Below, piece by piece: positions 3,141 through 63,434 of a stretch of DNA of 64,000 nucleotides. The notes below the pieces were generated by a model. The model saw only the letters and a program-made list of their open reading frames with translations, did no database searches and was not told the DNA's origin. Both the position numbers and the translations under genes were made by a program. The stretch is from NCBI RefSeq assembly GCF_018977255.1, contig NW_024704759.1:7688001-7752000 (forward strand). The letters run 5' to 3'. Source of the stretch: Callorhinchus milii (lineage: Eukaryota). Each line of letters opens with the position of its first letter. The stretch's first letter is position 1.

Positions 3141-3338
3141 AATTCACAATCACTGGACACCTGCATTCAGAGCACTCTCTCGGCTCTGTACCCTCCATTC
3201 GAAGCCACTGCTCCCACAGTCCTCAGTCAGATCTTCCGTCTCATCGAGACATTTTATAAGGGAGATGGGCTCCGCTGTTTACTGGATTTCTTAATCCCTG
3301 CGAAACGCATCCTGGAGACTGTGCAACAAGACGCTTGC
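3141..3338 (+). CDS. KIAA1755: RhoGEF gene exon 2 (first exon seen; [10 protein letters not shown]...QDAC)
   Basis: cag acceptor at 3140, gtaagt donor at 3339, 198 nt phase 0/0; family N-terminal motif. Confidence 0.93.
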
Positions 3339-18300: not shown

Positions 18301-21300
18301 TGTACATCATTAGCAGATCGAATGTATTGATTGAGGAAAATGTTACAGTGCAATAAAATTTCATTTCAAATAACAGCTGTTTTTTTGTCAGTATCCAAAC
18401 CAAACTGAAAATTCGATGCATCCCATTTGTACATGGAAATTCCAGCGATAGATTGTTGGAGTGGAACGTGCACTCTCTTTCTGGAGGGACATCGTACAAT
18501 CAATTGTTTAATTACATTTTGTTTGGGTCTGTATACCATGTGTCCTTTTTCTTAAAAAAAAACTTTGTTGTGGTGGAAGGATTTTAGAGAACTATATGGT
18601 ATTTATAATACGGTAATAATAATCGATTAGATTTATATATTAAAGATTAAATATATGCCTTAAATAGGTGCTTTACAAAATGTTGATTAGAAATTAAAGT
18701 GAATTTTACTATGTAGTCAAATTGTGCCAGCAAATCCCTTCAACAGCACTCAGATAAATGGAGGGGTAAGTGAGCCAGGATAAGCAGGAGAAAGACTCCA
18801 CAAATCTTTCAAATAGCACCTGCAGTCTCTTTATGTCACCTGAATCACACGGAAAAAGAAGTGCAAACAACAGTCAAAAAAAAATAGATGGTGATGTGAA
18901 AATAAATAATAAACACAGTGAGCAGATAGTGAATAATAATAATAAACATAGCGAACAGTAGAGGGAGTTGTGTGGAGGCGGAGAGGCTGGATTTCTGCAC
19001 TGTGCCCATCTAAAGATTTTTCCCATGACAACAGCGGTGTTCTGAACCGGAAGTCACAGCACTGGCTTTTATCTTTGGCCTGGAAAATTCCCCAAAAGTC
19101 CAACGAAAACTCAAAAAGTATAACAACCTTCAAGGTCATGATTTTTAACCATTTTTCTTAAATGCGAATTCCGAACTTTCAGCCACAAAACAGAAATCAC
19201 AGTACGTGCAATGGCCTCTAGTTTGCAAATTATGGCCCTCATCCCCATTAAACACATCAAGTTTACTGTTTTGTATTCAGTTAATCAGTGCATTGCACAA
19301 ATCCCTTCACTCTCTGGCACCTCTCCGACCTCCTCACTCCCCAATCCACCACCCAGCGCCTCCGCTCGACTGGCACCGACCACCTGCTCGTCCCACCATC
19401 GGTGGTCGTGCTTTCAGCCACTATGCCCCAAAACTCTAGAACATTCTCCCTCAATCCCTCTGCCTTGCCCCCCTCTCTTCCTTTTTTTTAAGACCCTCCT
19501 GAAAAGCTTCCTCCCGCCCACAGCTTAGAGTCAGGCTCTGCCACAGTTGAGCTCTCTGAGACGCTGCCCTGTGTGGAGGGTGCTATATAAGTGCAAGTTG
19601 TTGTCGTACACTACGAATCTTAGTGTGCAAAACTATGTAACTAAAACACTACAACAGATAAGGGAATACTGCAAATATTTGATTGGCTCATATTAGATGT
19701 GTCTTGACTGAAGGAGTGGTCATATATCAGGAAGTTTCCAGCTCATGCACTGTTAATATATATTTCCTATCGAGCTCCACTGAGAGAGCCAACGGTAACA
19801 TGGAGTGAGGTGGATGACTCGTGCACAATGAGCTAACTGAGTGGTATTTTTTTTGTTGATCTTTTCAGGAAGCAGGGATAAGGCAGGGAGAGCTGTGTTG
19901 CAAGTCTGCACCAACAACAGAGTGTGGCAGAAGCCAACCTGCACCATTGCTGACCTCACCAGATTGTTTCTGTATTTCCACAGTGTTCCCAGGTGAGACA
20001 CATTCACCATATTGACCATCATTGTATCAACATTCAGAGTATTGACTCCCACTCTTCCCTTCATTGAGAACAGAAAGGCAGTACTAGCTTGTAGGGAGCA
20101 AACAGATTTTTCATCACGTTGTTAATTAATAATACCTCCATTCCGCCATATCACCTCGAAAAACACTTCACAGAGGTTTCTGTAAAGTGTAGTGACAGCA
20201 TACAGTCAAACCTGTCTTCAACAACCACTCAGGGGACTGGGTCAATGTGGCCTTTATATAAAGGTGGCCTCTGAGTAAGTGTTCAATGGTTCGTGAATGC
20301 ACACTAAAGAGGCTGTTCTGGTGTGGTTGGTAATAAGGGGTAGTTGCTAAATGGAGGTGGTTGCTTGAGCAGGTTGACTGCATTTGCAGGTTAACCTGGC
20401 AGCCGATTTGAACACAGCAATGTCCCACAAACAGCCATGAACTCAGTGATTAATTGTTTTGTCTGAAGCATTGTTGGCCAAGACACCAGAATAAAACTCC
20501 TTTCTCTTTTCAAATAGCACCATGGGATCTTTAACATTCTTGGTTTAGCATCATGGGATATGAGGGATAACAACTCTAATATTGCATAGAATATCAGCCT
20601 GGACTGTAAGTCTCAAAATCCCGATGTGGGGCTTGAACCCACAATTTTCTGACACCGAGACAAAAATGTCTTTGCAAAACAACGTATAACTGATCATCGT
20701 GAGTTGAGAGGGGCTAACGCATTTAAATAAATCATGATGGTGCCTGAGGTTAATTTATTATTGAAGCAAAAAAGCTGACTCCTCTTGTTTGGCTGTCTTG
20801 ATCAGACCAATCTGCAAAACTTTTAGCAACATGCTTTGAGCATAGTTTTGATATTTATGCAAAATAGCTCAGAGTTATTCAAGAAACTCAACAAAGCTTG
20901 GAAATGACACGGGTTCGCACTTGCACTATTGACTTAGGCTCAATGTTTTCAATGGCTTGGATCTGGGTATGAAATGAATTGATTGAGGTCAGGTTAGGGT
21001 GGAACCACCAACTTGTACTCATTCCTAGCACAGCCTTCTAGTCTTCTTTCTTGCATCCAATTCTTAACAAATGCCACACAAAGTGATCTCTGTAAAGGCT
21101 CGGTTGGATTTCCTCAAGGCAAATGATTTAAAATGCACCAAAGTCGGTAAGAAGGCTGAGAAGTGCTTTGTTCTGTAGCTTTTGGCACTTTTGTGGGGGG
21201 TCAGTTAGGTGTCTGACACATGCGGAAACCCATCACCATGTTTAAGAGTATCCAAACCAAGCTGAGGGTTCTATGCATCCCACCTACACATGGAAATCCC

Positions 21301-24300
21301 AGAGATAGATTGTGTTGCCTATTGATACGCTTTCCAACATTCCTCTGTTTCTGTTTTTTTGAAACCATACCACTGTTTGCTATGTTTGACAAAGTTGACT
21401 GTTTAATGCTGACCCCTACTGGTGATAAAAAGCATAATTTACATTGTGATTAAAGAAACACGGCATGCGATCGATATGTAGCTGATATGCAGCGAACGTG
21501 TGTCAAACTGCCGTTTCCACTAGCTCTCACATTGAATCAATGTGAGTTCAACAGTTGTACTCTGTATTCTGTAGAGTACAACTGCCGTTGTTCTGTGCAA
21601 ATTGGGAGGACGGCTCAAAACGCTTCACAAAATACGCAATAAAGTGCAGTGAATGTGTTTTTTGTGGGCAAATCAGCGCTTCACACTGAAGCAGCAGATA
21701 GCAGTATAATGTGGTTGACTTACTTTAAGCTCTCAGGAATTGCATTGTTTGATTTTCATTGTGCATATTTCTTATCACAGGAAGGAGGTTAGGGAACTGG
21801 GGCTGATGGTTGTTGTGGATGCCAGAAGATGCCCACCTCCTCTCGCACTTTATAAGGCTTTTGGGTCAATGCAGGTGAGAATTGTTACGTTCAGCCACGG
21901 ACTTTCATGGAGGTAGAATTCCACCCAGGTGTAGATTTACTACATTAAAGCAGCATTTCTGAACGTCCTGAATTTGGCAAACCGCTGAATTCAGTTTTAA
22001 CTTTCGAAGCGCGTTTTCTGTAGTTGTTGGAAGAAGCTTATAGAAAAATGGCTTCAATATGACAGAACATGTTTAAGAATTTGCCAAATTCTTGATGCTC
22101 TGAAATGCTATGTTAGTAAATTAATTTCTTAATAAATTAATTCATTTTAACTCATTTATCCAAGGTAAAATTCATTAAATGTAAACGGGTACAAGTCAGT
22201 GATCTTAAACAATCCACAATTACATTATGTTACATCTATTCAAGAGAATAGATGGATGAATCAATAGAGCAATAATACTTTAACATTCAAATCCGTGACT
22301 AGTACTAATGAGAATATCCAACATGATGGCAGACTATGATCATCCTCATTATCTCGGGTACAATATGTAATTTGGGACATGACATGTCAAGCGACTGCCA
22401 GGATGGTGGAAGGCGAAATGGATGGACCTAGATTTCTAATAATGGAGAGGTCTTTCAAATCAAATTGCTTTAATTATTTCCAAGATGGGATTTCTAAGGT
22501 CCTCTGGACAATTTGTGGAGTTATTGTATGATATATATAATATATAAAACACAGTCAATTCACTTTACAGAATATTCTGTGATTTGTTTTGAGACGTCTT
22601 GAAGACATGATAAGGCGTTATAGCAAATGCATGGATTATTATTATAAATATATGTATAGATTTGTTATTCATCTGTTTGAACTACTTTGATGTTTCGTTC
22701 TGCAGGAATCTGTCCCTCACTCCATTCACTGTGTCCTAATACTAGTAGATAAAGAGGCATCATTTAAGGTGGAGAAATATCCCGGGACAGTGGTAAGTGT
22801 TAGCTAACCTTTTAGACAATTAGATTGAATCAGGAAGTGGGTTTGCCTTGCTCTGTAACATTGGTTGCAATAAAAATAAAATTGCACCAATTGAATTTAA
22901 ACATTTTCATTGAAACCTCACTAGCTTTTCCCAATCCTGTTTGTGCCTCTTCGGCAATTTCCTCTGCTTTTCCTCACAATTTTGAGGTCTAAATGCTTGG
23001 ATTCCGATAGCATCTCTACTATTGGAGTGATACTTAACCCTTGTGTTATCAATAATAGTTTAAACAATACAATGCAAAATTACATTTGCATAGTGCCTTT
23101 CACACTGTTAAAAACACCATTAAAACACTGACATAACCAATTGGCAGAACGAAGATGAAGGACAGTCAATCCCTAGTGAATTGAAAGTAGTTATGTCTGA
23201 TGTATTTGGGACAGTCTGACCTATATTGTTTGCTATATTCAGATGGAGGTTTTGACATCCTTGAAAGCCCTGCACAAGTTCATCGAGAGCAATCAGCTGA
23301 CAGAGGACCTGGAGGGGACATTTCCTTACAGCCACTCTGACTGGACTCAGTTTCGTATGGTGAGGACAATTTCAGGCCACTGCACTTTAGTTGGTTTAAT
23401 AGAGAATTCCGTATTCATAGATTGGAGTGATCTCCGGCTGTTACATTTACTACACTTACTACCACATGCGTTTATAACAGGAAATTCCAGTATCCAGCAT
23501 TAATTTGTGCCACTTTTAATTGTCTGTCATTTAATGTTGAGGTCTAATAAATATCCTAAACAGCATTAAAGTAAATTGTAAAATGTACCAAGCCCTCTGG
23601 GACGCTATCCTGCATTAGGTGTGCTATATAAATGTACATTTTTGTTGTTGCATTTAATTTGTGTGGGACAGAGAATTGAGCGGAGAGACCAAAAAAAAAT
23701 ACTGCTTGACTTTTGAGCAACCTATTTAGGGTCTGAAATTGCTATTAGTTTTGGAACATCTGTTTATTGTAAAAATATGATTACGTTTTCAGTAATAATG
23801 TATAAATTACAGATCATCTGCTCTCCCATTGATGTAATCCAGGCTCTGAAATAACTTTGCTCCCTGTGATTTACAGTTTTTTCCCCAGTGGAAATTGCTG
23901 TATGGAGGGCCTGCAAGGACTTGAAATTACAGCCCAGCTCACAATGAATCCACACTCCCGTAACATTGGGGTCAGTGTGCTCGCCTTGCAAGCAAGATTC
24001 CCGGGCTGGACTCACTGTACTGCTTGTATGCTGTGGGACTATGCTATGATCCAGTTCTTACCTACCCCGAAATTCACAATCCTACTTAAAGGCCGAGGGG
24101 CCTAAATATTCCCTTGCCTCTGAATGAATGAAAAAACAACATTGCGATACTGCATTTTTGCCACCGGATGACAGGCTTGTGCTGTGTACCATTGTGAAAG
24201 GAGTTTGTGAGAACCATTTAGTTTATACAGAACTGTGTCTCACTGAGTTGCTGGACAAATAAATTGGCTCCACCACCATCAACATGGCTTACCCTGCTCT

Positions 24301-27300
24301 CAGATACTGGTCCCTATGGTTTTAGCTGCTGCCAGGCTTTCAGGATAATTGGTGAGGTGTCCAATAGCATGTTTATTTTTTTCAGCTGTCAGCCCTTCCT
24401 GTGTGCATAGGCATTTTTATGTTTGTAGCATGCCTCTTGGAATCAGAAAGTCTTTCCCTTTAACACAACATCCCTTTTAAATCTTCTTTGAAAGATACTG
24501 CATAGTTCCTGATGTAACTTCCACTACAACTCGTATTTCAGACCAAGGTCATGAATAATTGATACTTGTCCAGCTTGGGACCTTCTACCCCTTAGGAATT
24601 TGGCTTGTGGACATCCCTGCACTTGAAGGTCTACCTTTGATATCCTGCAAACCTGCACAGCTTTACCTGTTCTTGAATAGGTTGCTCATCTTCAAAGGGT
24701 AAAGGGTTGAGTGGATGCCCTGAGTCGGATTCAAAGACCAGACCTTGCAATCTCGAGTGTGCTTTAAATACCTCCTGCTCTCAGCCTGCAGAACCCTTTT
24801 GCCTTAAAATTTGAAATTGTGCAAAATTGTAGAAACATCCTAAAATTTGGATCTGGTTTCTCTTAAGAACCTTCGAAAAATCCCCTTTCTTCTCAATTCA
24901 TTTTTTTCCCTGATTTTTTTGCGCATCTTAAATGTTAAAGCACAAAGCTCTTAAGGCTAAGACCAGTTTGAATTGGGGGCTTCTTTGGCACTGAAGCAAA
25001 CGTGTTTCCCAGAATGGTTTTCTGGGGAAAGTGGCGTGTAAGCATTTTCTGGGTTCGAACAAATCCGTCACGACTTCAAGAACAAATGTTAATCAATTTG
25101 AAAGGAACAGAGCTGGCAAGGGTTCTCTTCCTATTGCAGCCCTAAGCAGAGGGAACAGAATATTGGCACCAATGCAAAGGCCATTCATCGAGTATTCCAT
25201 GCACAATTTCACTGGTTTTACAGACAGATTTCAGTCAAGAGATTCTCAGCTTTTATTTACATGGCAGCTTTCATGTTGGGATGATATCTCAACGTCCTTC
25301 ACAGGATATCCTGTAAAGTGTAGTGTCTGTGCATTTTGTAGGCAAATTTGGCAGCCAATGTGTACACAGGAATGGCCCACAAACACTCCTGAAGTTTGGG
25401 GGATTGTTGGCCAGGACACTGGGAGAAACTCCATAGTGCCATGAGATTGCTAACGCCCACCTGAATAGGCCGACTAAACCTTGGTCTCATGGTCTCATCC
25501 GAAGGATGGCCCTTCTATCAATGCTAAACCTCCAGGTACTGCATTTTAGAAGCAGCCTAAACTGGTTCAAATGTACCAACTTGTGGCTTGAACCCACAAC
25601 CTTCTAACTGGTGAATACTCTGAACTGAACCAGGATGGCAGTTAAATTATTTGTTAGCTTCTCATATCTAAGGTGCAATTTGTGTAAAGATGCTGAACCA
25701 ATTTTGCATGACTGTTGCGTTGAGTAATCTTTACAAAGGATGTTTGTTAAATACAAACTATGTGGTTTATTTTGCAGAAATTGGAGCTGTTCGTTAGAAA
25801 CTGCATAGATGCGTCCAGCCTACTTTTGGAGACCATTAGAACATTTGAATCCACTAAACCTGGTATCAGTGTGCAGGTACAGGTCAAGCAAGGATGAAGG
25901 AGAGAACAGAAAAAGTGGAATAATCTTCAATGACTTTTTTTTAAACGTTTTTGCAAACATTTTTAAATTCAGTCGTAATTTGGAAGACCTTTTTCCCACA
26001 GTTCTCAAAAGAATCGGACTCCAAATTAAAACTTAATTTAAGGATTTTGCATGTTCTTAATAATAATCCTTACATTTTGTAGAGTGCTTTCATGTCGGGA
26101 GGATGTCTTGGAGCATTTTGCAGGATATTCTGTGATTGACTGTATTTTGTAGAAGATAATATTGGGATGGACCAAGTATTTGCATCTATACTGGGAGGAA
26201 TGGTGGTCAATAGATAGATTGGCTCAAAAATTCACCAATTATTCTAGTTGTATGTTGTTTGCTGTAACTTTTATCCTCCTAAGTTTGGAAGAAATACATT
26301 TGTATATTAAAGCGAGACAGATCCAGGTCAGTCTGAATGAGGCAGTGCAGGGTTTTTTTTTGGAGGAAAGTTTACTTTTTATTTTAAAGTTGAAATGTTA
26401 GTTCAATAGCGACTCTCAGTTATGCGTTCAGATGTGATTCCACTAAATTGATCATATCATCTGTCCAGAGGATTTGAGTAGGTGGTTCAAGGCAGCATTA
26501 TGGGGGAAAATGGATAAGCAGTCAGTATCCACCCCTTCACCTGTGAACAATCTTATATGTTTTGGATGAGAATTGATCATCAGATTACATGTTTTTGACC
26601 CTCGCATTGCTGTGTGAGTGACTCCAGTCTGCAGTTTAGCCCCTGATCAGCTGCTCTCCGGAGCCAATGCTACAGGCGACTTTACCAGATTATTATTTTG
26701 TGGTGGTTTCCCTTCTGGAGCTGAAAGTTCTTTGTTTTTTTTTGTTTTGACAGGCAGTCCTTCACTGTATCAGTAACCACAAGATGATGATGAGGCAAGT
26801 CCTACAAGATTCACGTTTGGTTGGTTTGCAGTTGCAAGGTGGAGCAATCCTGTCTCGACTGAAGAGAGAAGAAACTCGGTTTGCCTTCTCTGAGGACTAT
26901 AGGTACGAACCTATCTTTTGGGGAGTCAGCCAAGTGTCCAGAAATTTCCCAGTACCGGGAATGGAATGCACACTCTCTGCCTGGAGGGACATATCTTGCT
27001 TACCTAGTTCCGACATGCATTAGGTACAGGTTGGAGAACTGTATGGCAAGCTTCCTACTACATTGGCTTGTCTCAATATTACATTGTAAAGGTATTGATG
27101 CATTGCCTGAAAGGGTGGTGGAAGCTGATTTGATAACAACTTTTAAGAGAGAAGTAGATAATTATTTGGGGAGGATAAGTTTGCAGGGCTATGGGGAGAG
27201 AGCGGGGGAGAGGAATTGATTTGGATAGCTGTTTTCAAAGAGCCAGCACAATGGGGCGAATGGCCTCCTTCTGTGCTGTATAATTGTATGATTCTATGTA

Positions 27301-30300
27301 AAAGTTACACTGATATAGCATTTGCATACATACTTGGATTCTGAATGGATCTATAACACTACCCACTCTTCCAACTCAGGGACGCTATGGATTCAGTCAC
27401 ATCTCTCTACAACAAGGTTGAGGAGGGTGTCCATACGCTGGTGACAAAGTCCAATTGGTGTTTGCAGCACTTAGAGTTCTTAAAGGTTCTGAGGACGCTG
27501 GAGGAAAAAATCCAAAAGGTCTGGCATTAGTTATTCATCTGCATTGTGAAAAATTGACTGTACTTTCCTGTTTATTCTTTGAGATACAACAAAAATATTG
27601 CTACAGTAGTAAAAAATCTCTGAATAACATAACTGGTTAATGCATGTAGGTTACAGTCTTGACGACAATAGTGACTTTTCTCAGGTCACTTTGCAGCCAG
27701 CAGTGCAACTGCATCAAAGTTCACATTTCTCTAGCGTGTATCATTTTGGGCTTAGAAACTGATAAGTACTGTGAATAGAACTCAGTTGACTGACATTGCT
27801 TCTCTCAGAACCATCCTGAAGGATTGTTTAGTAAGGACAACCCAGATCAGATTTCTGTCGAAGTTTGGGCATGTTGAGAGATGAGCTTTTCATTGCATCT
27901 GACCTGTGTCACACTGGACTGATGAAACACTCTCGCTGGTTACAATGGGTGAAAAATGTTCCAATCTCAACACCCTCATCCCTCGTCTTGATAATTTTGC
28001 CCGTTTGGAGATTGACACTCACCCATATATCCACACTCCCAGGACCACACACGATTAGGCCACAAGGCCACGACTGTGTGATTGGTTGGAGCCCGCACAT
28101 ACTGCTTGTCATTTCAAAGAGATGTAGTATTTTTCTAATCCATTTGTCTCTTGCGCTTGAAAAATGAGGAAGCCGAAAAGCAGAAGTAGAAATAGCATCT
28201 CTACTCTTATTAAACACAGATTGACTGAAGGGGGAAAAAAATACCATAGTATTTTACAGGTGAAAGCCAAGTAAATAGATCAAAAGACTATAAAGGATAA
28301 GAATGAATAGGAAAAAAAGGTGGCAAGAAATACAGAATTCAATTGTGTGGAGTCCCGTAGCGTAGAGATTAGAGTGCTCGCCTCCCAAGATGTGAAAAGG
28401 AAAAATTATTTTTTTATGAATCCCTGTTAAAAAAACAATAAAACTAATAAATATAATAATCCTTGTATTTGATATAGCTCCCTTATTATGCCATCAAGAC
28501 GTCTCAAAGTGCTTCACGGGAGTTTACTGTAAAGCGATGGACTATGTGTATTTTGTGAGGGTAATAGAATTCTTTCTGATTTTGTGTAGGGACAATAACC
28601 AAGCAAATGTTTAGAAATGCAGTGTTTTTAGAGGGTGAGTGAGGGAAGGCTGAAAGTGCTGGATGAGAGAAGGGGCTTTTTGAGTTCATGGCACAGATCA
28701 GCCAAGGAGCTTTGACAACTCCTAATATGCTTTCACAGTGACTGCACCTTATTAATCCAAATTGTGCTGCTGTTGCATAAAATAGTCCAGAATTGCTCTT
28801 TCAAGTCAACCCATAATGATGTTAAATTATAATATTGCTCATTATCATTTCACACATTATTAAAACCAGAAGCAAAGTGCATTAAAATTGATTAAAATGT
28901 ACTTAATTTAATTTAGACTTTGACAGTAAATTCAATAACTAGGTAATTCTTCATCACTCCTTCATTTTCTGTGCAGCTCAACGACTGGATTCTTTCTGAA
29001 GGTGAATCCTGTGTGAAGGACTCTGACTCCAGTGAAGATTCTCTCGATGCCATACAGCAAACACAGCAAAGATTCAGTGACCTCTTTTCGCTGGTCACAG
29101 TAAGTCATCTCTTTTACCATTTATTGGGCTACAGTCACATCTCTCCTCAAGTTCATACTCTGAGTGGGGAGAAAATTTAAAAGTATTCTTGAGTGTCCAG
29201 AATATTGCAAATTGATGAATTCAGTCTTAATTATGAAGCCTGTTTTCTGCAATTTCCTAAAAAGAAACTTCAAAATTAACAATAACTTGCATTCATATCA
29301 GCGCCCCTCATGCAGAGTAGCATAACCGGAGCCCCTGACAGTGGCGGAACATGACACAGAGCTGGGGTGCTAGAGAGGGTGAAAGGTGACCCTAGGTACT
29401 GTAGTAGAGGAAAGTCTCCAGGCGCGACCGAAAATGGGGAAGGAGTAGCAAGGTGAAGGGATACAGGTAGAGTGTTTCAGAGTTTCGGGGTGTAGTAGTG
29501 TAAGTTTTAAATTAAGACTGGATTTAAGAAATTGTCGTAGTCTGGATGCTCTGAAATGCCAAGGAATAGAATAAGTCTCGACCCAGGTGAAATTTCAACC
29601 CATATGAGCCATTCTCACGCTATTTTGCTACACGATCCTCGTACCCTTAATCTTCCTCTTCTTCAAGCATCTGTTAAATTTCCCATTAAAATAACAGATG
29701 GACCCTTCTTCAAATGGAGAAAAACTCCGGCGAAGTTTTGATGGATCAGATGTGTTTCTGTATTGTAAGATTCTATGAAACACTGATTTTGTTTGAAGCA
29801 AATTCTTTGCCGCTCACTTAATTTTGCCCACAAAATATACAGCCAATTCACTTTACAGTATATTCTGTGAAGCACTTTGAGTCGTCTCAAAGACACGATA
29901 AGACACCATGTCAAATGCAAGGCTTATTATCATAATTTCACTTATTCAATTGCTTTTGTGCTACCTTTGTATCCATATACACTGGTTGAAATTCCGCCTG
30001 AGTGAGAAAGTTTCACATTCCAACCAACCCTCTGTTTTCTAACCTACCCTCTTTGTTGTCTTTTTTTATTATCTGAAATGTATGCCTTTTTTTTTACTGA
30101 CTTGCCCAACAGTGGAAATAACCTACTGTTTCCCAACCCTTCCTTGCCTTGAAGACCTCTATCAGGTCACCCCCATATCCTTCTGCTGATATAAAGCTGA
30201 TTTATTCTGGCTTGAATGCACCAGTATGTGGTCTACTTCTCTTCAACCTTATCACCATTCAAACCATAGAAAGAATACCACAAGGGTTTAGAGCTGCTCC

Positions 30301-33300
30301 GAGAAGCTGATCAATTGAACGGTTCATCGTATCCTGAGTTTCCAGCCTTCAGGGAAATGGTGGAAACCTTCAAAGTGCGCATGAATAATCTTCAAACAAG
30401 AGCAAAGAGACGTCAAGAGGAGTTGGAGGCCCTGGTTCATCTGTACGCCTTCTGTGAGCAGGTCTGTACCTGGGGCCTGGTGCTCAGCAGGAAGCTTATG
30501 CTGCTTTTATACCACGGAAGCGATCGATCAGAGATCTAGTATCAGAGATTCCGATTAAATAAAAACACCAGTGTTGCTGGCCATCTCAACAATAATCAGG
30601 CAGATCTGAGGAGGTTTCTCTCCAGATGGAGCTAATTAATGCTAATTATTCCTTTAAGCTATGCCGAATTCTGGTTAATTTTTTTTAAGAGCATTGACGA
30701 GACAGGACTGTGACTGTCTCTAATAAAAAGTTTATTGTTCCATTTATTGTGAGTCAAACAGTAATGCTTGGCTGGGGCATTATTGTTCCCCCAGTCACAC
30801 TCTGCAGTGATTGTGGGTTTTACCACAGCTCATTTGTTTTTCTGTCTGTATGTTCATTCCCAGGTGTTAATCCTTGCATTGGAGATGTTGTTGTCTGTTG
30901 GCTGATATACAACATACTGTCTACACGCAAGGAACTGAAAGTCAGAAATTCTACTTGCTGCACATGTAATAACTTTGACTACGTGTGGTAACGTGGGCTC
31001 AGCATTTGTCTTAGCTCTTATTGCCAGTCTCACTCCCCTTGGCAGCATTATATAATAACGCATGTTAATAATTACATGTTTTAGAATATTATGATCACCT
31101 CCCATGTGGTATTTTGATGACGTTTATTCTGGAAGTGCATTGCTAATATTTCGGATCGCCTCATACTATTTCAGGCGACACGGTTTGCAGCGGAGTGCAA
31201 GCACTACCTCAGGCAGCTGGACGTCGGGATGCCCAAAGTGCCCAGATCGGCCGTGCTGCAGCAGCTCGAGGGTTACCAGCAGAGGTTTGGAGAATTCTCT
31301 GAGGACAAGTTCCAGCAGACGAAAGTCCGGATTTCCGGCCTGAACAGCACCAAGGGCACAAAGGTATGGAACATGACCTGGCTGAAGTGTCAGGAGGTCA
31401 GGCAACTCCTGGAAGAAAAGCTGGAGATTTGCAGGAAGGCTTTAAGAGATGGTAACGATCATTGCACTGGTGACAAGAAATCACCAGGGGACAAGGTCCA
31501 AGAGGGCAGTGATAACCCAGCTACAAACTCCATTAATAACTCTGGTGACTCCATAACTCCAGAGGATGTAAGTTGGAAGAGAGAGAAAGACAATCAGCCC
31601 CAGCCTATGAAGAGAGTTCATAACTATAACGAAAACACAACCAGTACGCAAGATGTGGTTCATTCATCAAGTGGAATACCGATAATCTCTTCAACCTTTA
31701 ATTGGCCCCTGTGGCTCCGTGCATCGCAAGGGTTGAACAGAGATAGTGGAACACAGTTCTGTTCTTTGCCCTCTTACACAGATGCCATCTTTTCTCCTCC
31801 TATCCGACGCAAAAGCTTTCCTTCCAGAAAGATCATGCAGGCGGCACAAGGCTTTCAGCTGTCAAGGCACCAGAGTTTCTGCTCTGAAGACGGAGGACCT
31901 AAGAACACTAAGCTGGTCGACAACAATAATTACCCCTCTCCCCATGTCAGCCCAATGCTGAGCCAGACTCAAGGACCAAACTTGTTACTTGGGACGATCC
32001 AGGAACCAACGACAGAAACAAAAAGACATTGCTGGTGAGAGCAGAACATACATACACACAATAATACACTTGTAGATGGAGAGTCTAGGTTTACACTCTT
32101 TGTGTTTGAGTCACTGTCACATCGAGACTTATTCTTGCTCCCTCTTTGTCTCTTGGTCATTTCAAGCACTAAACTGCAGCGAATCATGGAGGAGATGCTG
32201 ATCACAGAGAGGAAGTACGTGCGCTCTCTCGGTTACATCATCGCTCACTACTTCCCCGAAATGGAGCGGCCAGATCTGCCCCAAGACCTCCGGGGCCAGC
32301 GAGCGACCATCTTTGGGAACCTGGAGAAGCTGCATGACTTCCACAGCCAGTACTTTCTGAAGGAGCTGGAGGCCTGTGTACAAGATCCCATTAGCGTCGG
32401 CCACAGCTTCCTCAGATATGTGAGTTACCCTCCAGATTGATATACAGTCAGTTTATGTTACGGTGTTTCCTGTGAAGGGCTTTGAGACATCTCAAAGACC
32501 TGACAAGGTGCTACATCAAATGCAAGGATTATTATCATTATTTATTGATGTTATTGGTCAGCTGGGTGTGTGAAGCACGCGGAAACCCATTACCACGCTC
32601 ATTTAACAAAACAGCTTGATCCTGTGATGGTGGTGGGGGGTGAGCGGGGTTCTGGAGTGATGAGATCGGGTGGGCTGAGAGCCTTCTTCCTCCAGACCAA
32701 AGATCCGTCTGCCTGCTCAGGCAGGCGTTGCAGATCTTATTCATGGTTCAATGAGAGAAGAGAAAAGAGAAAAGAGTTTCTCCTGTGTCCAGGCCAACAA
32801 CCCTCAGGAAAATGAATCGTTCATTCCAGGATTGTTTGTGTGGAGAATTGGCTGTGGCACATACAAATATACAGTCACTACACTTACTGTGAAATCCTGT
32901 GAAACACTTTGAAACATCCAGTAATGTAATAAGGCCCTATATCAAATTCAAGGATTATTATTATTATAATGTAAGGGTCAACAAGTGTGCTTTTAACAAG
33001 TGCTTCGATCTCCCTCTGTTCTCGCTCTTAGGAGGAGCAATTTGCCCTGTATGCGTTGTACAGCAAGAACAAGCCTCAATCGGATTTCCTGCTCAGCAGT
33101 CATGGCAACACTTTCTTCAGGGTAAATACTGGAATCACACTATCAGGGCTCACAATTCCATCCAATTTCATACAGACAGCCGTTTTGTCTTAGGATTCAA
33201 GATTCCACAAAATGTTACGGAAAATTCTTCAATTCATTCTTAATTTATAAGCATTTTTGTTTCAGAACTGCGGAAAATCAACTTCCAAATTAAGGTGAAG

Positions 33301-36300
33301 ATGTTCATACCTATTTCACTTCAACCCTTCCACTCCATGACCCTTGCACTTCAGCCTGAGATGGACTCTAGTCCAGTTGCCTGAGGAGGACTGTGAGCTT
33401 AGCCCTCCACACCCCTCCCCCACCTTTACGTACCCCTATTCAACCCCTTTTGATGTAAATGCTGAGTTGGAACAATAACAAAGGAATACTGAATCTGTGC
33501 TCCTCTTTTACACTTCCTCTCCAAGTCTACAATGCTAAGGGAACTTTACAGAGTTCTCTCATATAACTTCCTTCACGACCAGTAACTCCCTACCTCTCTG
33601 ATCTTCTTGTGCCCCATTCTTCTGCCTACCCCCTCCAAGCCACTGCTCTGAGATGCTAGTGAAGGACACTATATAAATGCAAGTTGTTGCTGAAAGAAAA
33701 TCAGGGTGACCGTTTGTGGCATTTTGTAACCCATTCCTTATGGTAACAAGGAATTGTATTTTGCCATGTTTCACTGTGTGTTCCTTTAGGATAACAGAAG
33801 GCATGCACAGTGAAACATTTCAAATTACGCCCGGTTAACTAGGTATGTATTCAGGTTCCTGATGCATGGAATTTAAAGAAGCAAGAGACTTGTATTGAAA
33901 AGTTACTGGGCTAACTTCAGCATTGAAATGGTTAACCTCCCCACTTCTTCTTCTTCCTTGGCAGTCTAAACAGCTGGAGCTGGGAGATAAGATGGACTTG
34001 GCTTCCTACCTGCTGAAACCCATCCAGAGAATCAGCAAATACAACTTACTTCTGAAGGACATGATCAAAGAGTGTGGGACAGCCCAGAGCCAGGAGCGAA
34101 AGGAACTTCTCGTAGCTCATGAGATCGTCCGCTTCCAGCTTCGACATGGAAACGACCTACTTGCCATGGACGATATACAGGAATGTGATGTAAGTGTTGC
34201 TTCACTTCCGCCCATTCTGACTAGGTAGGCACAGTGTGTCCCTCTGTGGAGAGACAGAAAGGGACCATTTGTTTCCAGGCAAAGAGAAGTTTCCATGCAC
34301 ATGTTGACCTTTCAGTCTGGTTTCGATACTGTCATTTGAAATCTTACTCAGTTCTATATAGTTCCCTTTGAGATGTCCCTTTCAAGGCTTTTCCATTCAT
34401 TGCTCAAAAGCAAACATGGAGCTTCCATTCAATTTCGAAGATTACACAAAACACTTGTTGTAAAGCCCTCAATGTGCAAGATTGGCTCTAATTTGTTATG
34501 CTGCAATTTAAACCCTTCCTGTATGATAGAACACAGAAAAAAGCCGAATCCTAATGGCAGAAAATCTATTCCCAGGTGAACCTGAAGGAACAAGGCCAAC
34601 TCTTACGTCAAGATGAATTCATCATATGGTACGGACGAAAGAAATTGTACAGGCACGTCTTTCTCTTTGAAGACCTTATACTCTTCAGCAAGACCAAGAA
34701 AACAGAGGGAAGCAATGACATCTACATTTACAAGCAATCTTTTAAGGTACTAAGAATGTTTTTCAATCTAGAATTGTCCGCTACTGAAAGCTGAACTAAC
34801 CTGAAGTGGATAACACTGTAATGTAACACATTTACATCAATTGCATTAATGTAGTATAGAATTATATCTGTACATCAAATATCTGATTAGGTAATGTTGA
34901 TTCTATTTGTTAGACGTTCTCGCGTGAAAATTCTTCATTTTCCCAGGGATAAGCCCAAGCAAAGTAGATTTGGATGAAAAGCTTGTTTCTCCCTGATGGA
35001 TTAGATTTAATGCATGCTCTGTGTTGCTTATATGTTTTAGACATCCGAAATAGGAATAACGCACAACTCCGGTGAGAGTGGGTTGCGCTTTGAAATTTGG
35101 TTTAGGCGGCAGAAATCCCAGGATACCTATATATTACACTCCCCATCTCCCGAGGTGAAGCAAGCCTGGATAGAAGACTTGGAGAGAATACTGTGGAACC
35201 AAGCCTTGAGGAACAGAGGTCAGTAAACTAATGTGAAGGATGCACTGAAATAAATATATACTAAAGATAGAAAGTCATTAACAATCCTAGGGTTCAGATT
35301 CAATACTCTCGTACACTTCTAATATTTACATTGTATACATTTTTTTACTTTGTTGGGAAAGTGTCATACGTTTGGTGATTTTTCTTGGACGCACTTGTGT
35401 TTGGATTAACTGAGTACAGGATTCAGGCTTTCTCCTTAATGCAGAACCTTCTTGAATGCTGTCTATTCACCCTCATAATTGTCACCTATCTTCCAAGTCA
35501 TAGAGTGGCTTTATATCTGGGGAACGGAGCAAATCCAACTCTGCAATTCAATCTCTTTCTAAGATGATTTTCCAACCCAAAAAATTTGCAAGTATTTCCC
35601 TGAATCGTAATTTTGTTTATTTTAATCTCACATGATGTTCTTTATCAATTGCCTTCTGAAAATGATATCTACCAGGAAATCGTGTCGATTTAAATAACTG
35701 CTAACAAAAAGCATTGTGTCTTGTACCCTCTATGGTGAGAAAGTGATCTGGATGACACCTAACAACACTTTGAAACTTTTAAATTCTGTTTGCAAGTTTG
35801 CATCGTATTTAACCCTTTCTCCCCTGCAAATAATATATGGCATATTCTCCCTTGACTCAGCAAAGTGTTTGTATTTATGTCTCAAAATAGTAATGAGCAG
35901 GCAATTAACTATATTCTCCCTTCTGTTTAAATACAGGCTCTAAATTTTCTTTAATATCTTCTGAATCAAATTCCCACAATGGTTTTAAAGATAAATGCAC
36001 CATGTGGTATTGAACCACGTAGACTAAATATCTGATATTTTATCTCTGGTGAGTTAGCTGGTCTGTGTTGAGACAGTCATGGGTGGCGTTATACTTGGCA
36101 TCTCTGGTCTGCGGAGAAAGGGAAATGATCAGTTTTTCTCATTCTCGATTGCTACCCAGCCATCGTTGCGGCAACTGTGTCTGTTTGGTGTTGGGGAAGC
36201 CAAAATTAAACTCTAACATGATGCCTTCATGGTTGAACGGGGTGCCAGTTCTAACTGGCCAAGCTAACGTGAAGAATGGAGGACTGGAGGGTTTCCAGTG

Positions 36301-39300
36301 TCTGTATCTGCACACTTGCGTGTTTTACTATCTTCAGGAAAAAAGGGACAAGGCAAGAAAAATGACTCCAGGCCTATTTTGAATGTGTTAACCTGACCAT
36401 AAAGCATGGAGCTGTCACTCTGTCCATTAATAAAGACATAGCATTGTAAAATCCCAGGACTTTATTCATCCCAGAGGTTCACTGTGCTGAAGCCTTTCTG
36501 TCTACCTTGTCTGGTAATGATTGCAGAATGGTTTGAGACATTTTGCTGTGATAAGCTGCCATTATTTTGGGTTTGGGTGGGGGGCAGTCAGATATCTGAC
36601 ATGTGCAGAAATCCATCACCATGCTTAAGAGTATCCAAACCAAGCTGCCATAAAAATGCAAGTTCTTTCTAGTCTTATCTGCTAGTCTCGAGATAAACCA
36701 GGTATATAGCATTGACTGAGAATCATGCCTGAGCTAAAAGGACAGTCTACAGCCTTTCAAAAAAAGTTTTCTATCGGAACACACAGGTAATGAATCAATG
36801 CCTGACTTAACTCTTTGAACATAACAGGGTGTTCACTAACTGGCATGGAGTGCATTATTATGCTTAAGTAATTTTTTCTAGTTTTTTTTCTCAAATATAA
36901 AAGCAGTCCCTATCAATTCTGAAATTCCTTCTTTAGAGCTTCGGATGCAGGAGAGGGTGTTTATGGGAATTGGCTGTAAGCCTTTTATGGACATCAAACC
37001 TAGCGAAGCGGCCATCAATGACCGAGCGGTTGACTGCGTCACAAAAGGGAAAGGTATGAGTTTAACACCCAGGTTAGCAAGCCTCTAAAGAGGGACTGCA
37101 CTGGACTGGAACACCCAGCATTTATTCACGCTTAGGCCTGAGTCTAAGCACAGGCCAAACAGACAGTGAAATCTTTCTCTCCATCAAGAAGATGATTTCA
37201 ACATAAAAACTTGCCTGTCCTTAAACTGCTCCTATTCCCCTTTCAGAGGCTACAACGTGTTACGGATGAGATTCTCACACTGGTGTAGCGGACCTTGCTC
37301 TAACCTTGTTGGGATTCAGGTGCTCTGTCAGAGAGGTTGCAGGGGAATTTGGGATTGGATCTGTCCTTTTCCACATTGACAAAGGGGGTGGGTGTGATGC
37401 ACTATGTGATGATATGTTTAGCGAAACATATGATGCTACAGTACTGGGATGATATTAATTTACAATGGAATTAAGTAGGTTGCCAGGCTGCAGCAACTCA
37501 AGGTCTTCACTTAAAGTTCCTTCAGGCCCGAGCACCTCCACATGTTGGTGATTTTCTTCCACCCGCCTCTGCTGCTTGCCCTCTCCACTCAACTAACTTG
37601 CTCACCCCCGTCTACTTGGCTAACCTGGGCCTGTCTGCTGCCCATTCACACCACCATCAGTGTCTCAGCAACTATGGCCTTAATCTCTTAGTCCTTCTTC
37701 TATCCCTTCATCTCACACTCCCCCTCTACTGGTCATTAAATACAAATGTCTTTAAATGGAATAAACTTGTTCTCACAATAATTATTTTATCTTTAATGCC
37801 TTTGATTTACAGCCCAGCGATTGCAAAAAGGACTCACACGTGCATTTTACTTAGACCGTTGAGTGAACTTCAACGACAACATAACATATTTTCCCCCTTT
37901 TATCTTTCAGACGCCAGAATGCCAACACTGCTAGCTGGGGCTGTTCTGGAACAGGCAAAAAGACCGAATTCCACTGGCTCCAATGGCAGTATCTGCTCTT
38001 CGGGCAGCCATGCTTCTTCTTCATCTTCAGGCTTCGGTTCCCTCAACATGCACCTTTACGCCTCTTCTCCATCCACCTCAGGAGGCACTGCTCTCATCAA
38101 TGGGGCTTTCTATAATATGCACATGCGCATTGATGAAGATGACTTGGAGTGTGACCCAGATGACAGGCGTAAGTGAACAAATCACAGCAAGTATGATTTA
38201 TGTGAAGAAATACTTCCTGGTCTCATAGCCCTAATACTTCATAGCCCTAATTGATGCCATTTTGTCCTGCTGCCTCAGTGTATCTGAAAGTCTTAATCTG
38301 TGTTTATTTTCTTCCAGTAAAGTACTGTCCCGCTTTCTTTGTCTGCAGCTGAGAGTTCAGAGACATCTTCCCAGTGCAACTCTGCAGAGAGCATGAGTGG
38401 CTTTAGCAGCTCGGAGCACAGCAGCCTTTCTCTCACTGGAGGAGACGCAGACGAGTTGTCTTCACTCTGCTCCTCGTCCTGCAAACCCATCTCAGATGTG
38501 TGCTCCCATAGTGCATCTCCATTCACAATCCCTGGAGCATCGAAAGAAGAGCAGCCATTTGGCCATTACCTGAAGAAAGTAAACATTCTGTGCAGTTTGC
38601 ACTTTTTCCTTAGTGCTCTGGGATGGTACCATGCGTGAGGGGCCCTATATATAAGGCAACTTGTTGTTGTTTCCTTATCTTAAATGACATGTGTTGATTT
38701 AGAAGAATGGAGAAATTAATTCAGTATTCTCATCTGTTGAGTTTTGTTAAACAATGGGGTGAAGTTTGTGTTATATCTTAACCAAGATATTCAGAGGCAT
38801 TTGATGCAGATTTGGAATTGCCCCTTCAAGGTGTTCTGTTTTCAGAGTGGGGTTCCTTCAATTCAGAACGTAACAGTTCTGGGAAGGAGTTTCTTAATTA
38901 TCAAATATTGTTAAGAAATAGTGCAAAATTGGCGCTTAATGTCTCCAAAGATTTCAGACTATTTTCTTTGATCTTCATTGGTTTTGTGTGTGTGGTGTGC
39001 ATGAGTGAGTGTATATGCACATAGATAGATTGCCACGTGCATCACTATTATATTCTTGCACATCATTTCACGTTTCGCCCACAAAATGCACAGTCAATTC
39101 ACTTTACAGTAAGTGCTTTGAAACATCTCAAAGACAAAATGCAAGGATTATTATAATTATCATTATCATGTATTTGTACAATTGGATTCTGCCTGTTCAG
39201 GTGAATGTTAAAGATATCATGGAACTATTTGAAAAAGAAGGGATTCTCTCCTAATGTCCTAGCCACCAGTCCCTCAGATAAAATTCATCATTCACTTCAT

Positions 39301-39873
39301 GACTGTTTGTGGGACATTGCTGTGCACAAATTGGCTGCCAAATGTGCCTTCAAAATAGAGTCTCCGCACTTTACAGTGAATCCTGTGAAGCACTTTGAGA
39401 AGTCTCGAAGACGTGATAAGATGTTGTACCAAATAATAATAATAATAATAATCCTTGCATTTGATATAGTGCTTTTCATGTCGGGAGGACGTCCCAAAGC
39501 GCTTCACAGAACACACTGTAAAGTGAATTGACTGTATATTTGTGGGCGAATGCGGCAGCCAATTGCGCACAGCAATGTCCCACAAACAGTCGTAGATTAA
39601 AAATGACCAATTTATTATTGTTTTTGGTTTTGGAGGGATTATTATTAGGCTCTGTGTGGAGTAAGGAAACTTGCCCAAGGTTTCGCCCTCTGCCTGGAAT
39701 TGAACTCAGGTCTCTCACTTGCAAAGCAAGTGCTCTAACCATTGAGCTACAGGACTCCACAAGGATTATTTTTGTATTCTTGTTTGTTATGTGTAGAATC
39801 AAACAGGTTTTATTTTATTTTGTTCTAGGATAATTCTGCTGATATTCCTTCAAATCACTCAACAGCAGTCTGA
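3141..39873 (+). CDS. KIAA1755: KIAA1755-like / quattro-like RhoGEF (PLEKHG4/ARHGEF40 family): N-terminal conserved domain, SEC14/CRAL-TRIO-like region, spectrin-like repeats, DH and PH domains; 22 coding exons in window, 5' partial
   Basis: Exons joined by hand with GT-AG boundaries and matching phases: 3141-3338, 12076-13432, 17915-18091, 19869-19992, 21781-21874, 22706-22792, 23243-23359, 25778-25876, 26754-26902, 27380-27518, 28977-29099, 30270-30461, 31175-32034, 32167-32419, 33032-33121, 33965-34189, 34576-34746, 35041-35218, 36937-37053, 37911-38168, 38349-38578, 39829-39873 (5283 nt, open frame). Family motifs [51 protein letters not shown]; DH motif [12 protein letters not shown]. 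The symbol rests on the LEGDYV/PEFV motifs and TGM2 adjacency. Confidence 0.88.
4986..5388 (+). mobile_element. Deu-domain SINE (SacSINE1/AmnSINE-related)
   Basis: tRNA-like head; Deu core ggatgagacgttaag...ttcaggtggatgttaaagatcccatggcactattcgaa...ctcctggtgtcctggcc; (TTA)n tail. Confidence 0.85.
7734..8050 (+). mobile_element. tRNA(Ala)-headed SINE with L2-type 3' tail, full length
   Basis: A box tagctcagtgg, TGC anticodon-like loop, B box ggttcaattcc, body ccttgggcaagtttccttactccac, (TTA)n tail. Confidence 0.9.
10393..10712 (-). mobile_element. Deu-domain SINE (decayed)
   Basis: (AAT)n tail, aatagtgccacgggatctttaagatcca core. Confidence 0.7.
12076..13432 (+). CDS. KIAA1755: RhoGEF gene exon 3 (large exon)
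   Basis: ctcag acceptor, 1357 nt inside the 468-aa ORF, donor gtaaat; [26 protein letters not shown]. Confidence 0.92.
14003..14340 (-). mobile_element. tRNA-headed SINE family, long-body variant, head truncated
   Basis: Same tail as the 7734 copy; central block (ctgtttacctagcagtaa) shared with 5862-6015. Confidence 0.8.
17915..18091 (+). CDS. KIAA1755: RhoGEF gene exon 4
   Basis: Strong pyrimidine tract plus tag, phase 1/1, ends [11 protein letters not shown] before gtaaat. Confidence 0.85.
19310..19608 (+). mobile_element. L2 LINE 3' fragment
   Basis: [15 protein letters not shown] motif, tail gagacgctgccctgtgtggagggtgctatataagtgcaagttgttg. Confidence 0.8.
19869..19992 (+). CDS. KIAA1755: RhoGEF gene exon 5 (SEC14-like start)
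   Basis: [13 protein letters not shown]...LYFHSVPR; ttttcag / gtgaga. Confidence 0.92.
20125..20665 (-). mobile_element. Deu-domain SINE interrupted by a MITE
   Basis: Reverse Deu core caaatagcaccatgggatctttaaca at about 20510-20540; head ggggcttgaacccacaa at about 20630. Confidence 0.75.
20203..20380. mobile_element. Tc1/mariner (pogo/Tigger-like) MITE
   Basis: Terminal inverted repeats cagtcaaacctgtcttcaacaaccac / gtggttgcttgagcaggttgactg, preceded by TA. Confidence 0.75.
21781..21874 (+). CDS. KIAA1755: RhoGEF gene exon 6
   Basis: [19 protein letters not shown]; cag / gtgaga. Confidence 0.92.
21952..22109. mobile_element. Palindromic MITE-like element of an abundant AT-rich family
   Basis: About 30-bp inverted ends gcatttctgaacgtcctgaatttggcaaa / tttgccaaattcttgatgctctgaaatgc. 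Confidence 0.6.
22706..22792 (+). CDS. KIAA1755: RhoGEF gene exon 7
   Basis: [17 protein letters not shown]; tgcag / gtaagt, 87 nt. Confidence 0.9.
23243..23359 (+). CDS. KIAA1755: RhoGEF gene exon 8
   Basis: [34 protein letters not shown]; cag / gtgagg. Confidence 0.93.
25265..25620 (-). mobile_element. Deu-domain SINE
   Basis: Reverse core ggccaggacactgggagaaactccatagtgccatgaga...cccacctgaatagg; head gcttgaacccacaacc. Confidence 0.75.
25778..25876 (+). CDS. KIAA1755: RhoGEF gene exon 9
   Basis: [16 protein letters not shown]...VQ; tttgcag / gtacag, 99 nt. Confidence 0.88.
26754..26902 (+). CDS. KIAA1755: RhoGEF gene exon 10
   Basis: [25 protein letters not shown]; cag / gtacga. Confidence 0.92.
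27085..27300 (+). mobile_element. CR1 LINE 3' end fragment
   Basis: [23 protein letters not shown]...GYGERAG, then gaatggcctccttctgtgctgt...tatgattctatg tail. Confidence 0.85.
27380..27518 (+). CDS. KIAA1755: RhoGEF gene exon 11
   Basis: [25 protein letters not shown]; phase 2/0. Confidence 0.9.
28977..29099 (+). CDS. KIAA1755: RhoGEF gene exon 12 (spectrin-like)
   Basis: [10 protein letters not shown]...; tgcag / gtaagt, 123 nt. Confidence 0.9.
30270..30461 (+). CDS. KIAA1755: RhoGEF gene exon 13
   Basis: [10 protein letters not shown]...[10 protein letters not shown]; tag / gtctgt, 192 nt. Confidence 0.87.
31175..32034 (+). CDS. KIAA1755: RhoGEF gene exon 14 (large exon preceding DH)
   Basis: ttcag acceptor in frame with the 269-aa ORF; donor tg|gtgaga, phase 2. 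Confidence 0.87.
32167..32419 (+). CDS. KIAA1755: RhoGEF gene exon 15 (DH start)
   Basis: [20 protein letters not shown]...[12 protein letters not shown]; aag acceptor / gtgagt. Confidence 0.92.
33032..33121 (+). CDS. KIAA1755: RhoGEF gene exon 16 (DH)
   Basis: [18 protein letters not shown]; tag / gtaaat. Confidence 0.93.
33965..34189 (+). CDS. KIAA1755: RhoGEF gene exon 17 (DH end)
   Basis: [21 protein letters not shown]...[12 protein letters not shown]; cag / gtaagt. Confidence 0.94.
34576..34746 (+). CDS. KIAA1755: RhoGEF gene exon 18 (PH)
   Basis: [15 protein letters not shown]...[14 protein letters not shown]; cag / gtacta. Confidence 0.94.
35041..35218 (+). CDS. KIAA1755: RhoGEF gene exon 19 (PH end)
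   Basis: [23 protein letters not shown]...[13 protein letters not shown]; tag / gtcagt. Confidence 0.93.
36000..36365 (+). repeat. Ancient SINE-like dispersed repeat (related copies at about 8190-8390, 9975-10075, 16455-16640, 44030-44165, and 15595-15835 on -)
   Basis: Shared degenerate 3' block ca(c)atgaagaatggccacttg...ggaactgt...ttcaggagagg-ggagaaaat across the copies. Confidence 0.55.
36937..37053 (+). CDS. KIAA1755: RhoGEF gene exon 20
   Basis: [32 protein letters not shown], a family-typical post-PH motif. Confidence 0.92.
37911..38168 (+). CDS. KIAA1755: RhoGEF gene exon 21 (Ser-rich)
   Basis: [11 protein letters not shown]...SLNMHLY; ttcag / gtaagt, phase 1/1. Confidence 0.88.
38349..38578 (+). 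CDS. KIAA1755: RhoGEF gene exon 22 (Ser-rich)
   Basis: The only AG that keeps the frame is tgcag at 38348; [21 protein letters not shown]; donor gtaaac. Confidence 0.72.
39432..39761 (-). mobile_element. tRNA(Ala)-headed SINE, full length, young copy
   Basis: Near-identical reverse complement of 45051-45370. Confidence 0.92.
39829..39873 (+). CDS. KIAA1755: RhoGEF gene terminal coding exon ([14 protein letters not shown])
   Basis: T-rich tract plus ctag acceptor, phase 0, TGA at 39871-39873. Confidence 0.7.
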   Translation, partial: DNSADIPSNHSTAV

Positions 39874-40274
39874 AGCATCTGGCGAACCACTTATTAGGTA
39901 TTTCTACTGAGAAACACAATACATGTCAATAAGAGGATTCTAACTGTTATGGTTTATTCATTGTCCTTATGGCTTAATGTGAGTCAGACTATCCATTAAC
40001 TCTTTGCAGTTACATCTGGCCAATTCAATCTCATCCTTTCCATAGCCAAGGTTTAAAATGCATTGTCAGCCTTTGATGTTTTGATTGCCTGCTTTCAGTT
40101 CCTCCAGTGATAATAATAATCCTTGCATTTGATATAGCGCCTTACCACGTCATTGAGATGTCTCAAGGCACTTCACAGGATACACTGTAAAGCGGATTGA
40201 CTGTGAATTCTGTGAGAGTGGAAGCTGGCAGAATGAAATAGAAAGGGCAATTGAAAGCTTTTTGAAATTGAAAC

Positions 40275-43113: not shown

Positions 43114-43119
43114 ATTAAA
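43114..43119 (+). terminator. Candidate polyadenylation signal (ATTAAA) of the RhoGEF gene
   Basis: ATTAAA after a U/GU-rich stretch (42960-43110); an alternative AATAAA lies at 43708. No transcript evidence. Confidence 0.3.
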
Positions 43120-53176: not shown

Positions 53177-53186
53177 ATGGCAAATG
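53177..53186 (+). CDS. TGM2: TGM2-like exon 1 (ATG GCA AAT G)
   Basis: Kozak-like aaaATGG, 10 coding nt then gtgagt, phase matches exon 2. Confidence 0.85.
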
Positions 53187-63210: not shown

Positions 63211-63434
63211 GTAAGTAGAAGCCACAGTTATCGATATCTGAGTGGAATATGTGTCAGTTTGCCCATCTGGTTTCCATGGTGTGTATGGAGGAAGATTTTG
63301 ATTTTTTTTTAGAATTGTAACCATCCTTGTATTTTTCGTAATGCCTTGTAACGTCTTAAAGTTTTCTGTGAAGTGTAGTGACTGTGCATCTGCAGGCAAA
63401 TGTGACGGACAATTTGCATTCACTGCAAATACGT

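Follow-up and report, generated by a model that had tools for sequence, protein, structure and literature searches.

We analyzed a 64,000-nucleotide stretch of Callorhinchus milii DNA (RefSeq assembly GCF_018977255.1, contig NW_024704759.1, positions 7,688,001 to 7,752,000 of the forward strand; hereafter the window, in which position 1 is the first letter) that carries a multidomain gene of the PLEKHG4/Solo group. This gene is very probably the full-length fourth paralogue of that group, KIAA1755/quattro, with an intact DH-PH unit that likely activates Cdc42 as does PLEKHG4B. In amniotes, this gene, KIAA1755, would stop short of the DH domain and likely encode a non-catalytic regulator. Databases and one paper already contain the gene and its orthology, which makes it a member of a known group. 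Of value here are the resolved history of the four paralogues, a corrected claim on the relationship between quattro and Solo (ARHGEF40), a testable mechanism for an orphan of genome-wide association studies and a predicted SH2-like fold for the Solo domain.

Structure of the KIAA1755/quattro gene

The gene model used throughout comprises the following features.

3141..39873, + strand: KIAA1755/quattro gene, 22 coding exons, 1760 amino acids (splice-checked model; start-codon exon outside the model)
3141..3338, +: exon 1, encoding the helices of the Solo domain (predicted to resemble the STAT linker; model made on homologue row P0273)
12076..13432, +: exon 2, 1357 nt, with the SH2-like part, a tyrosine motif and a long linker
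12076..12450, +: first part of exon 2, encoding the predicted SH2-like portion of the Solo domain, in which Gln107 (codon 12196) is the likely SH2-arginine position
12709..12711, +: Tyr278, aligning with ARHGEF40 Tyr242, a Src site in PMC12152665
17915..25876, +: exons 3-8, Sec14/CRAL-TRIO-like domain, about residues 567-720 (Kalirin Sec14 structure 7ur2, E 1e-12)
26754..30461, +: exons 9-12, spectrin-repeat region (Pfam Spectrin E 3e-4, under the curated cut-off)
31175..32034, +: exon 13, 860 nt, final exon in common with amniote KIAA1755
32035..32166, +: intron 13, 132 nt, where amniote proteins end
32167..34189, +: exons 14-16 (32167-32419, 33032-33121, 33965-34189), DH domain (Pfam RhoGEF), with T1252, E1253, K1371, Q1374, R1375, K1378, Y1379 and N1416
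34576..35218, +: exons 17-18 (34576-34746, 35041-35218), PH domain (Pfam PH)
36937..37053, +: exon 19, a conserved segment after the PH domain that at least one isoform skips
37911..39873, +: exons 20-22, tail rich in serine, with the stop codon

A script check of the exon limits returned AG at 22/22 acceptors and GT at 21/21 donors with a continuous phase, and a coding length of 5283 nt (1760 codons) whose single stop is terminal. Outside exon 19, the model differs by one mismatch from XP_007910365.1 (row P0001, "uncharacterized protein KIAA1755 homolog"), which is devoid of exon 19 and takes its start methionine from an exon absent from our model. A search for the simplest kind of start-codon exon gave no candidate for the gene, and no AATAAA signal occurs in intron 13 or in 39874-43500. 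Four N-terminal motifs cited in an earlier, sequence-only reading of this DNA were recovered at residues 4-10, 175-186, 273-279 and 681-689. The interval that it had delimited, 32167..37053, does contain the DH-PH unit, but its last exon falls outside the PH domain and the gene extends three more exons to 39873. Exon 19, skipped in the RefSeq isoform and, judging by length, in one contig, is a possible regulatory alternative exon.

The same reading had proposed that a KIAA1755-type N-terminal half is spliced in frame into an intact DH-PH unit, which is borne out by donor 32034 and acceptor 32167 in phase 2. Among 12 AG sites scanned in 32040-32200, two are in frame with the DH domain, and of these 32167 is preceded by the stronger tract (13 vs 8 pyrimidines out of 18). 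Contigs of four sequencing runs, whose RNA status is a guess and none of which is on record as RNA, were then compared, with splice junctions taken from the table of contig pieces, the joint table being filled by short interspersed repeats. A 4440-nt contig of run X3, which we take to be RNA, aligns as adjacent pieces on 31172-32033 and 32166-32419 and thereby spans the splice from 32034 to 32167, apart from an offset of one base common to both sides. Its upstream remainder measures 606 nt vs 603 nt for exons 9-12, and its downstream remainder 662 nt vs 664 nt for exons 15-18 without exon 19 (781 nt with it), a fit in length that makes it likely that a single contig links the spectrin region to DH-PH. 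Run X5, from a different study, shows the exon 16-17 and exon 20-21 joints. The kind of run X9 is unrecorded, and its coverage of introns resembles that of DNA; one of its contigs crosses 30223-32507 ungapped with intron 13 unspliced. Inclusion of exon 19 was seen in none of the contigs listed, which carries no evidential weight. Finally, a chimera between a KIAA1755 front and a neighbouring PLEKHG4B-type GEF (guanine nucleotide exchange factor) was considered and rejected, both halves falling in the same clade and being bridged by one contig.

An intact DH-PH unit

Pfam profiles match a near-complete DH domain (RhoGEF, E 2e-30, profile positions 1-173 of 180) followed by a PH domain (E 6e-30, positions 1-105 of 106), and a single transcript encodes a complete DH and then a PH, as in a Dbl RhoGEF. 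Upstream of DH lie a Solo domain, a CRAL-TRIO/Sec14 domain (structure 7ur2 matches residues 568-721 of XP_007910365.1, E 1e-12) and spectrin repeats, the latter with a match under the Pfam cut-off, in the architecture that the available text of PMC4791139 and PMC10881155 describes for the PLEKHG4/Solo group. The eight DH residues listed above are intact and align with contact residues of Trio and Dbs. They are identical in 19/19 DH-bearing members of the KIAA1755/quattro clade, as well as in PLEKHG4B (6/6 rows) and PLEKHG4; ARHGEF40 differs at most of these positions. The roles of the Thr-Glu pair of CR1, the Gln, Arg, Lys and Tyr residues of CR3 and the Asn of helix 6 are presumably those established by work on Dbs and Trio. 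Their retention across the clade argues for GEF activity, and by analogy with PLEKHG4B we predict that the DH-PH unit is a working, Cdc42-leaning GEF in fish and amphibians. Identity over DH-PH is 64-75% to PLEKHG4B (72-75% in five of the six rows) and 35-53% to ARHGEF40.

Orthology of the gene and history of the four paralogues

Relatives were gathered through three protein searches (best 120 each of 634, 250 and 329 matches) and one HMMER search (best 150 of 492). Identities were sought for 30 unnamed rows, and 53 proteins were hand-picked for tree building. Zebrafish quo and human KIAA1755 proteins stand outside this set, and quattro was judged from ray-finned orthologues named as such in databases. 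Among the matches listed, the closest relatives of the window protein are shark and ray proteins, to which it branches as sister. In the tree of the non-GEF region (53 rows, 662 columns), the window gene, quattro and KIAA1755 form a clade (100/100) that is sister to PLEKHG4B (100/98). Its members, arranged in near species order, are the window gene, the shark hits, coelacanth, lungfish, sturgeon and gar proteins, teleost quattro, proteins named si:dkey-65j6.2, and amphibian and amniote KIAA1755. A mixture model applied to 26 of the 53 rows yielded ((ARHGEF40, PLEKHG4) 95/93, (PLEKHG4B, KIAA1755/quattro) 98/96), again with a 100/100 clade for the window gene, quattro and KIAA1755. The DH-PH tree (46 rows, 300 columns) likewise unites the window gene, quattro and amphibian KIAA1755 (100/100) and leaves the placement of PLEKHG4 unresolved. 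Both halves of the protein thus lead to the orthology with KIAA1755 and fish quattro that the sequence-only reading had put forward, its N-terminal region grouping with KIAA1755 rather than with PLEKHG4, PLEKHG4B or ARHGEF40. We infer that the four paralogues arose from two vertebrate genome duplications, for which the tree has the expected shape.

That the gene is instead a second PLEKHG4B copy, its likeness to KIAA1755 reflecting motifs shared by the entire family, could be argued from the names of most shark and ray top matches ("PLEKHG4B-like"), from the occurrence of the N-terminal motifs throughout the family and from the high DH-PH identity to five of the six PLEKHG4B rows. This is extremely improbable given that PLEKHG4B forms a separate clade with its own cartilaginous-fish members and that an approximately unbiased (AU) test rejects the grouping of the window gene and shark hits with PLEKHG4B (p 4e-5). 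Database names are unreliable in this family: the shark hits (rows P0002-P0016), often called "PLEKHG4B(-like)", lie in the KIAA1755/quattro clade, two "ARHGEF40-like" rows fall in PLEKHG4, and misnamed rows include P0226, P0232 and P0217. Row P0147 was labelled as the PLEKHG4B of the same species from its accession block and tree position, no name being displayed. Scarcely more credible is the view that quattro, hence the window gene, is the ARHGEF40/Solo orthologue and acts as a RhoA GEF. The available text of PMC4791139 and PMC11521908 does present quattro as the Solo orthologue, and that of PMC5499878 reports ARHGEF40 to be absent from cartilaginous fish. Nonetheless, ray-finned fish, lungfish and amphibians possess a separate ARHGEF40 clade, the AU test rejects the union of the ray-finned quattro clade with ARHGEF40 (p 5e-6), and the DH contact residues are unlike those of ARHGEF40, although the protein may still act on RhoA. 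In all trees, the window gene stands outside both the ARHGEF40 and the PLEKHG4B clades.

Judged from the ray-finned orthologues so named, the zebrafish genes quattro (quo) and si:dkey-65j6.2 share with the window gene the clade on both halves and the DH-PH architecture, and Table 1 of PMC7367351, drawn from Ensembl and Genomicus, lists both as KIAA1755 orthologues; they are teleost duplicates, whereas the window gene is a cartilaginous-fish gene outside that duplication. The orthology of quattro and KIAA1755 is therefore less new than had been implied, being in print, and databases show RhoGEF and PH domains on such proteins. The available main text of PMC7367351 makes no mention of RhoGEF, Rho, guanine or domain, and that of PMC5499878, which counts 72 Dbl GEFs in bony fish, mentions neither KIAA1755 nor quattro. 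PLEKHG4B, the sister paralogue, has the same architecture and DH contact residues, but forms its own clade and its six rows are devoid of the tyrosine motif pattern. ARHGEF40/Solo shares the Solo, Sec14, spectrin and DH-PH regions and the Src-site tyrosine, but is a separate, RhoA-specific paralogue with a divergent DH domain.

Probable loss of DH-PH in amniotes

Taxonomic distribution was assessed on 121 proteins (the best 120 of 329 plus one placental sequence), with groups assigned from species names and three unnamed rows set aside. A DH domain was found in 3/3 salamanders, 3/3 caecilians and 20/20 frogs (26/26 amphibians, 25 of them with PH) and in 4/4 non-tetrapod fish. On the contrary, it occurs in none of the 88 amniotes (10 turtles, 3 crocodilians, 52 birds, 17 squamates, 5 marsupials and 1 placental). 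In four turtle and four bird proteins, the alignment extends through exon 13 and the protein ends at the point where the caecilian, lungfish, coelacanth and window proteins enter the DH domain. Together with the trees, this distribution agrees with the earlier view that ancestral KIAA1755 carried DH-PH; a working ancestral GEF and a GEF-less scaffold in mammals, both also proposed there, are inferences. The loss had been placed in mammals, a timing that we reject because turtles, crocodilians, birds and squamates also lack the domain; these groups without DH-PH and all three amphibian orders with it point to a loss on the amniote stem. On annotated proteins, the simplest reading is thus a single loss there, with exon 13 becoming the last exon, bearing in mind that four fish models are also without DH and resemble fragments or isoforms. 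In the window gene, read-through of donor 32034 into intron 13 meets a stop after one codon, so that loss of this splice alone would yield the amniote end. Amniote KIAA1755 is an orthologue that retains the content of exons 1-13 (Solo, tyrosine motif, Sec14 and spectrin) and possibly shares the transglutaminase neighbour, but is without DH, PH and tail.

Other trimmings were observed in the family. At the protein level, the 20/20 frog KIAA1755 proteins (rows P0442-P0489) have no Solo domain, start shortly before the tyrosine motif and keep DH, and a seal PLEKHG4 (row P0340) is without the Solo domain that a marsupial PLEKHG4 has, an independent case.

The Solo domain and the tyrosine motif

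Structure prediction gives the Solo domain a STAT-type linker-SH2 fold: in the predicted models only, helices encoded by exon 1 form a linker ahead of an SH2-like core encoded by the first part of exon 2. The likeness comes with 6-19% identity and a root-mean-square deviation of 2.5-6 Å, and the best Foldseek rows are STATs, none significant. Sequence and profile searches of the Solo domain returned no SH2 match, some hits being low-complexity linker matches, and ESM Atlas gave nothing usable for the domain (its own model has a pLDDT, or predicted local distance difference test, of 0.41). SH2 domains have an invariant beta-B5 arginine in their FLVR motif. In the Solo domain, the matching column, whose register is inferred from the motif, holds Gln in 46/53 rows and Arg in 0/53, and thus lacks this arginine. 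Scallop and starfish homologues also carry the domain. What is shared with STAT linker-SH2 (PDB 1uus, 4y5u, 1yvl) is the predicted fold and the succession of helices and SH2 core, which together span most of the Solo domain; the differences are an identity of about 10%, the Gln at the likely phosphate-binding position and the lack of DNA-binding and coiled-coil parts. From the models, we predict that the domain adopts this fold to bind proteins, probably without being a classical phosphotyrosine reader. A mere common alpha/beta arrangement, not shared descent, would fit the low identity, the large deviations, the non-significant Foldseek rows and the missing profile match, yet we consider it improbable. 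The Solo region is marked by a new Pfam family, PF27628, where an SH2-like fold may already be recorded.

Tyr278 aligns with Tyr242 of Solo, the Src site reported in PMC12152665. The tyrosine motif is present in 115/121 proteins of the KIAA1755 set and in 0/121 after shuffling; its pattern is absent from 6/6 PLEKHG4B rows and 3/3 invertebrate rows. ARHGEF40 Arg225, for which the available text of PMC11850187 reports disease variants, has no conserved counterpart in the window gene; its position falls in a linker that aligns poorly.

Proposed mechanism and significance

According to the available text of 10.1101/354316, PLEKHG4B acts as a GEF exclusively on Cdc42 and is autoinhibited by its N-terminus. 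This N-terminus binds ARHGEF11/12, and the N-terminal fragment lowers the RhoA activity of ARHGEF11/12 and G13 signalling in cells. Solo binds PDZ-RhoGEF (available text of PMC11238083), so that binding of RGS-RhoGEFs is likely older than the paralogues. The accessible portions of PMC4791139, PMC11850187 and PMC10881155 add that the Solo N-terminus binds keratin and the PLEKHG4B centre annexin A2. Taken together, the PLEKHG4B and Solo data lead to the prediction of a Cdc42-leaning GEF in fish and amphibians and of a brake without catalytic part in amniotes. In fish, the N-terminal half would keep DH-PH inhibited and target it to junctions or to the cortex. Release would come from partners such as RGS-RhoGEFs, annexin A2, keratin and, at Tyr278, Src, and the released DH would load GTP on Cdc42. 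By analogy, Cdc42 is marginally favoured as the substrate, otherwise RhoA or a mixture. In amniotes, the retained half might bind ARHGEF11/12 and dampen G12/13-RhoA signalling as the PLEKHG4B fragment does, a proposal by analogy that we regard as tentative and less likely than not.

There is nearly an even chance that, with the orthology right, amniote KIAA1755 has another adaptor role (keratin, annexin, Src/SH2 partners) or a rare GEF-bearing isoform missed by annotation. The keratin and annexin A2 binding of its relatives fits such a role, and no paper on a KIAA1755 mechanism was found in the literature searched. On the other hand, the absence of DH from 88/88 amniote proteins and the alignable sauropsid ends fit a fixed new terminus, and RGS-RhoGEF binding is common to Solo and PLEKHG4B, hence likely a pre-paralogue trait. 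Bolder than the brake itself, and rather unlikely as a whole, is the idea that the entire Solo/PLEKHG4 family carries an unrecognised STAT-type linker-SH2 beside a conserved Src site and that the fourth paralogue was trimmed in opposite directions. Under this idea, amniotes lost the catalytic end, and the SH2-like regulatory half stayed on to act as a natural dominant-negative brake on G12/13-ARHGEF11/12-RhoA signalling, which would explain the heart-rate locus at KIAA1755, whereas frogs would have lost the SH2-like domain but not the GEF.

Replicated associations of KIAA1755 with heart rate and heart-rate variability, including a stop allele, are reported in the available text of PMC5474732 and PMC5458336. 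For this locus without known mechanism, a GEF-less sister of PLEKHG4B offers a concrete lead (ARHGEF11/12 binding, RhoA damping). The zebrafish genes knocked out to model KIAA1755 have ray-finned orthologues that are full GEFs, which the human protein is not. Likewise, the gastrulation phenotype of quattro has been cited in support of Solo function in vivo, yet it belongs to a different paralogue. The predicted SH2-like fold would give the hitherto structureless Solo domain a testable surface. No paper on the truncation of amniote KIAA1755 or on an SH2 fold in the Solo/PLEKHG4 family was found in the literature searched, whose reach left out most subscription papers.

Neighbourhood of the gene

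Downstream of the KIAA1755/quattro gene, the window holds the following features.

46250-50800, - strand: two broken LINE-type retroelement copies (reverse-transcriptase matches 47667-48200 and 49318-49821)
53177..63211, +: transglutaminase gene, 12 exons seen, running past the window end, with the Cys, His and Asp motifs of catalysis; TGM2 is its nearest solved structure

A TGM2-like gene had been placed directly downstream on the same strand; a transglutaminase does lie on that strand, but starts 13.3 kb away, with LINE-type fragments in between. Against solved chains, it scores 78 bits with TGM2, 71 with TGM3 and 51 with factor XIII, TGM5/6/7 not being among the matches compared. The available text of PMC9941620 names a human TGM2-RPRD1B-KIAA1755 region. 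The single N of the window, at 58449, is in a transglutaminase exon. Short interspersed repeats are abundant in introns, for instance at 29800-29940, 32480-32540 and 39380-39700, where contigs of all four runs pile up.

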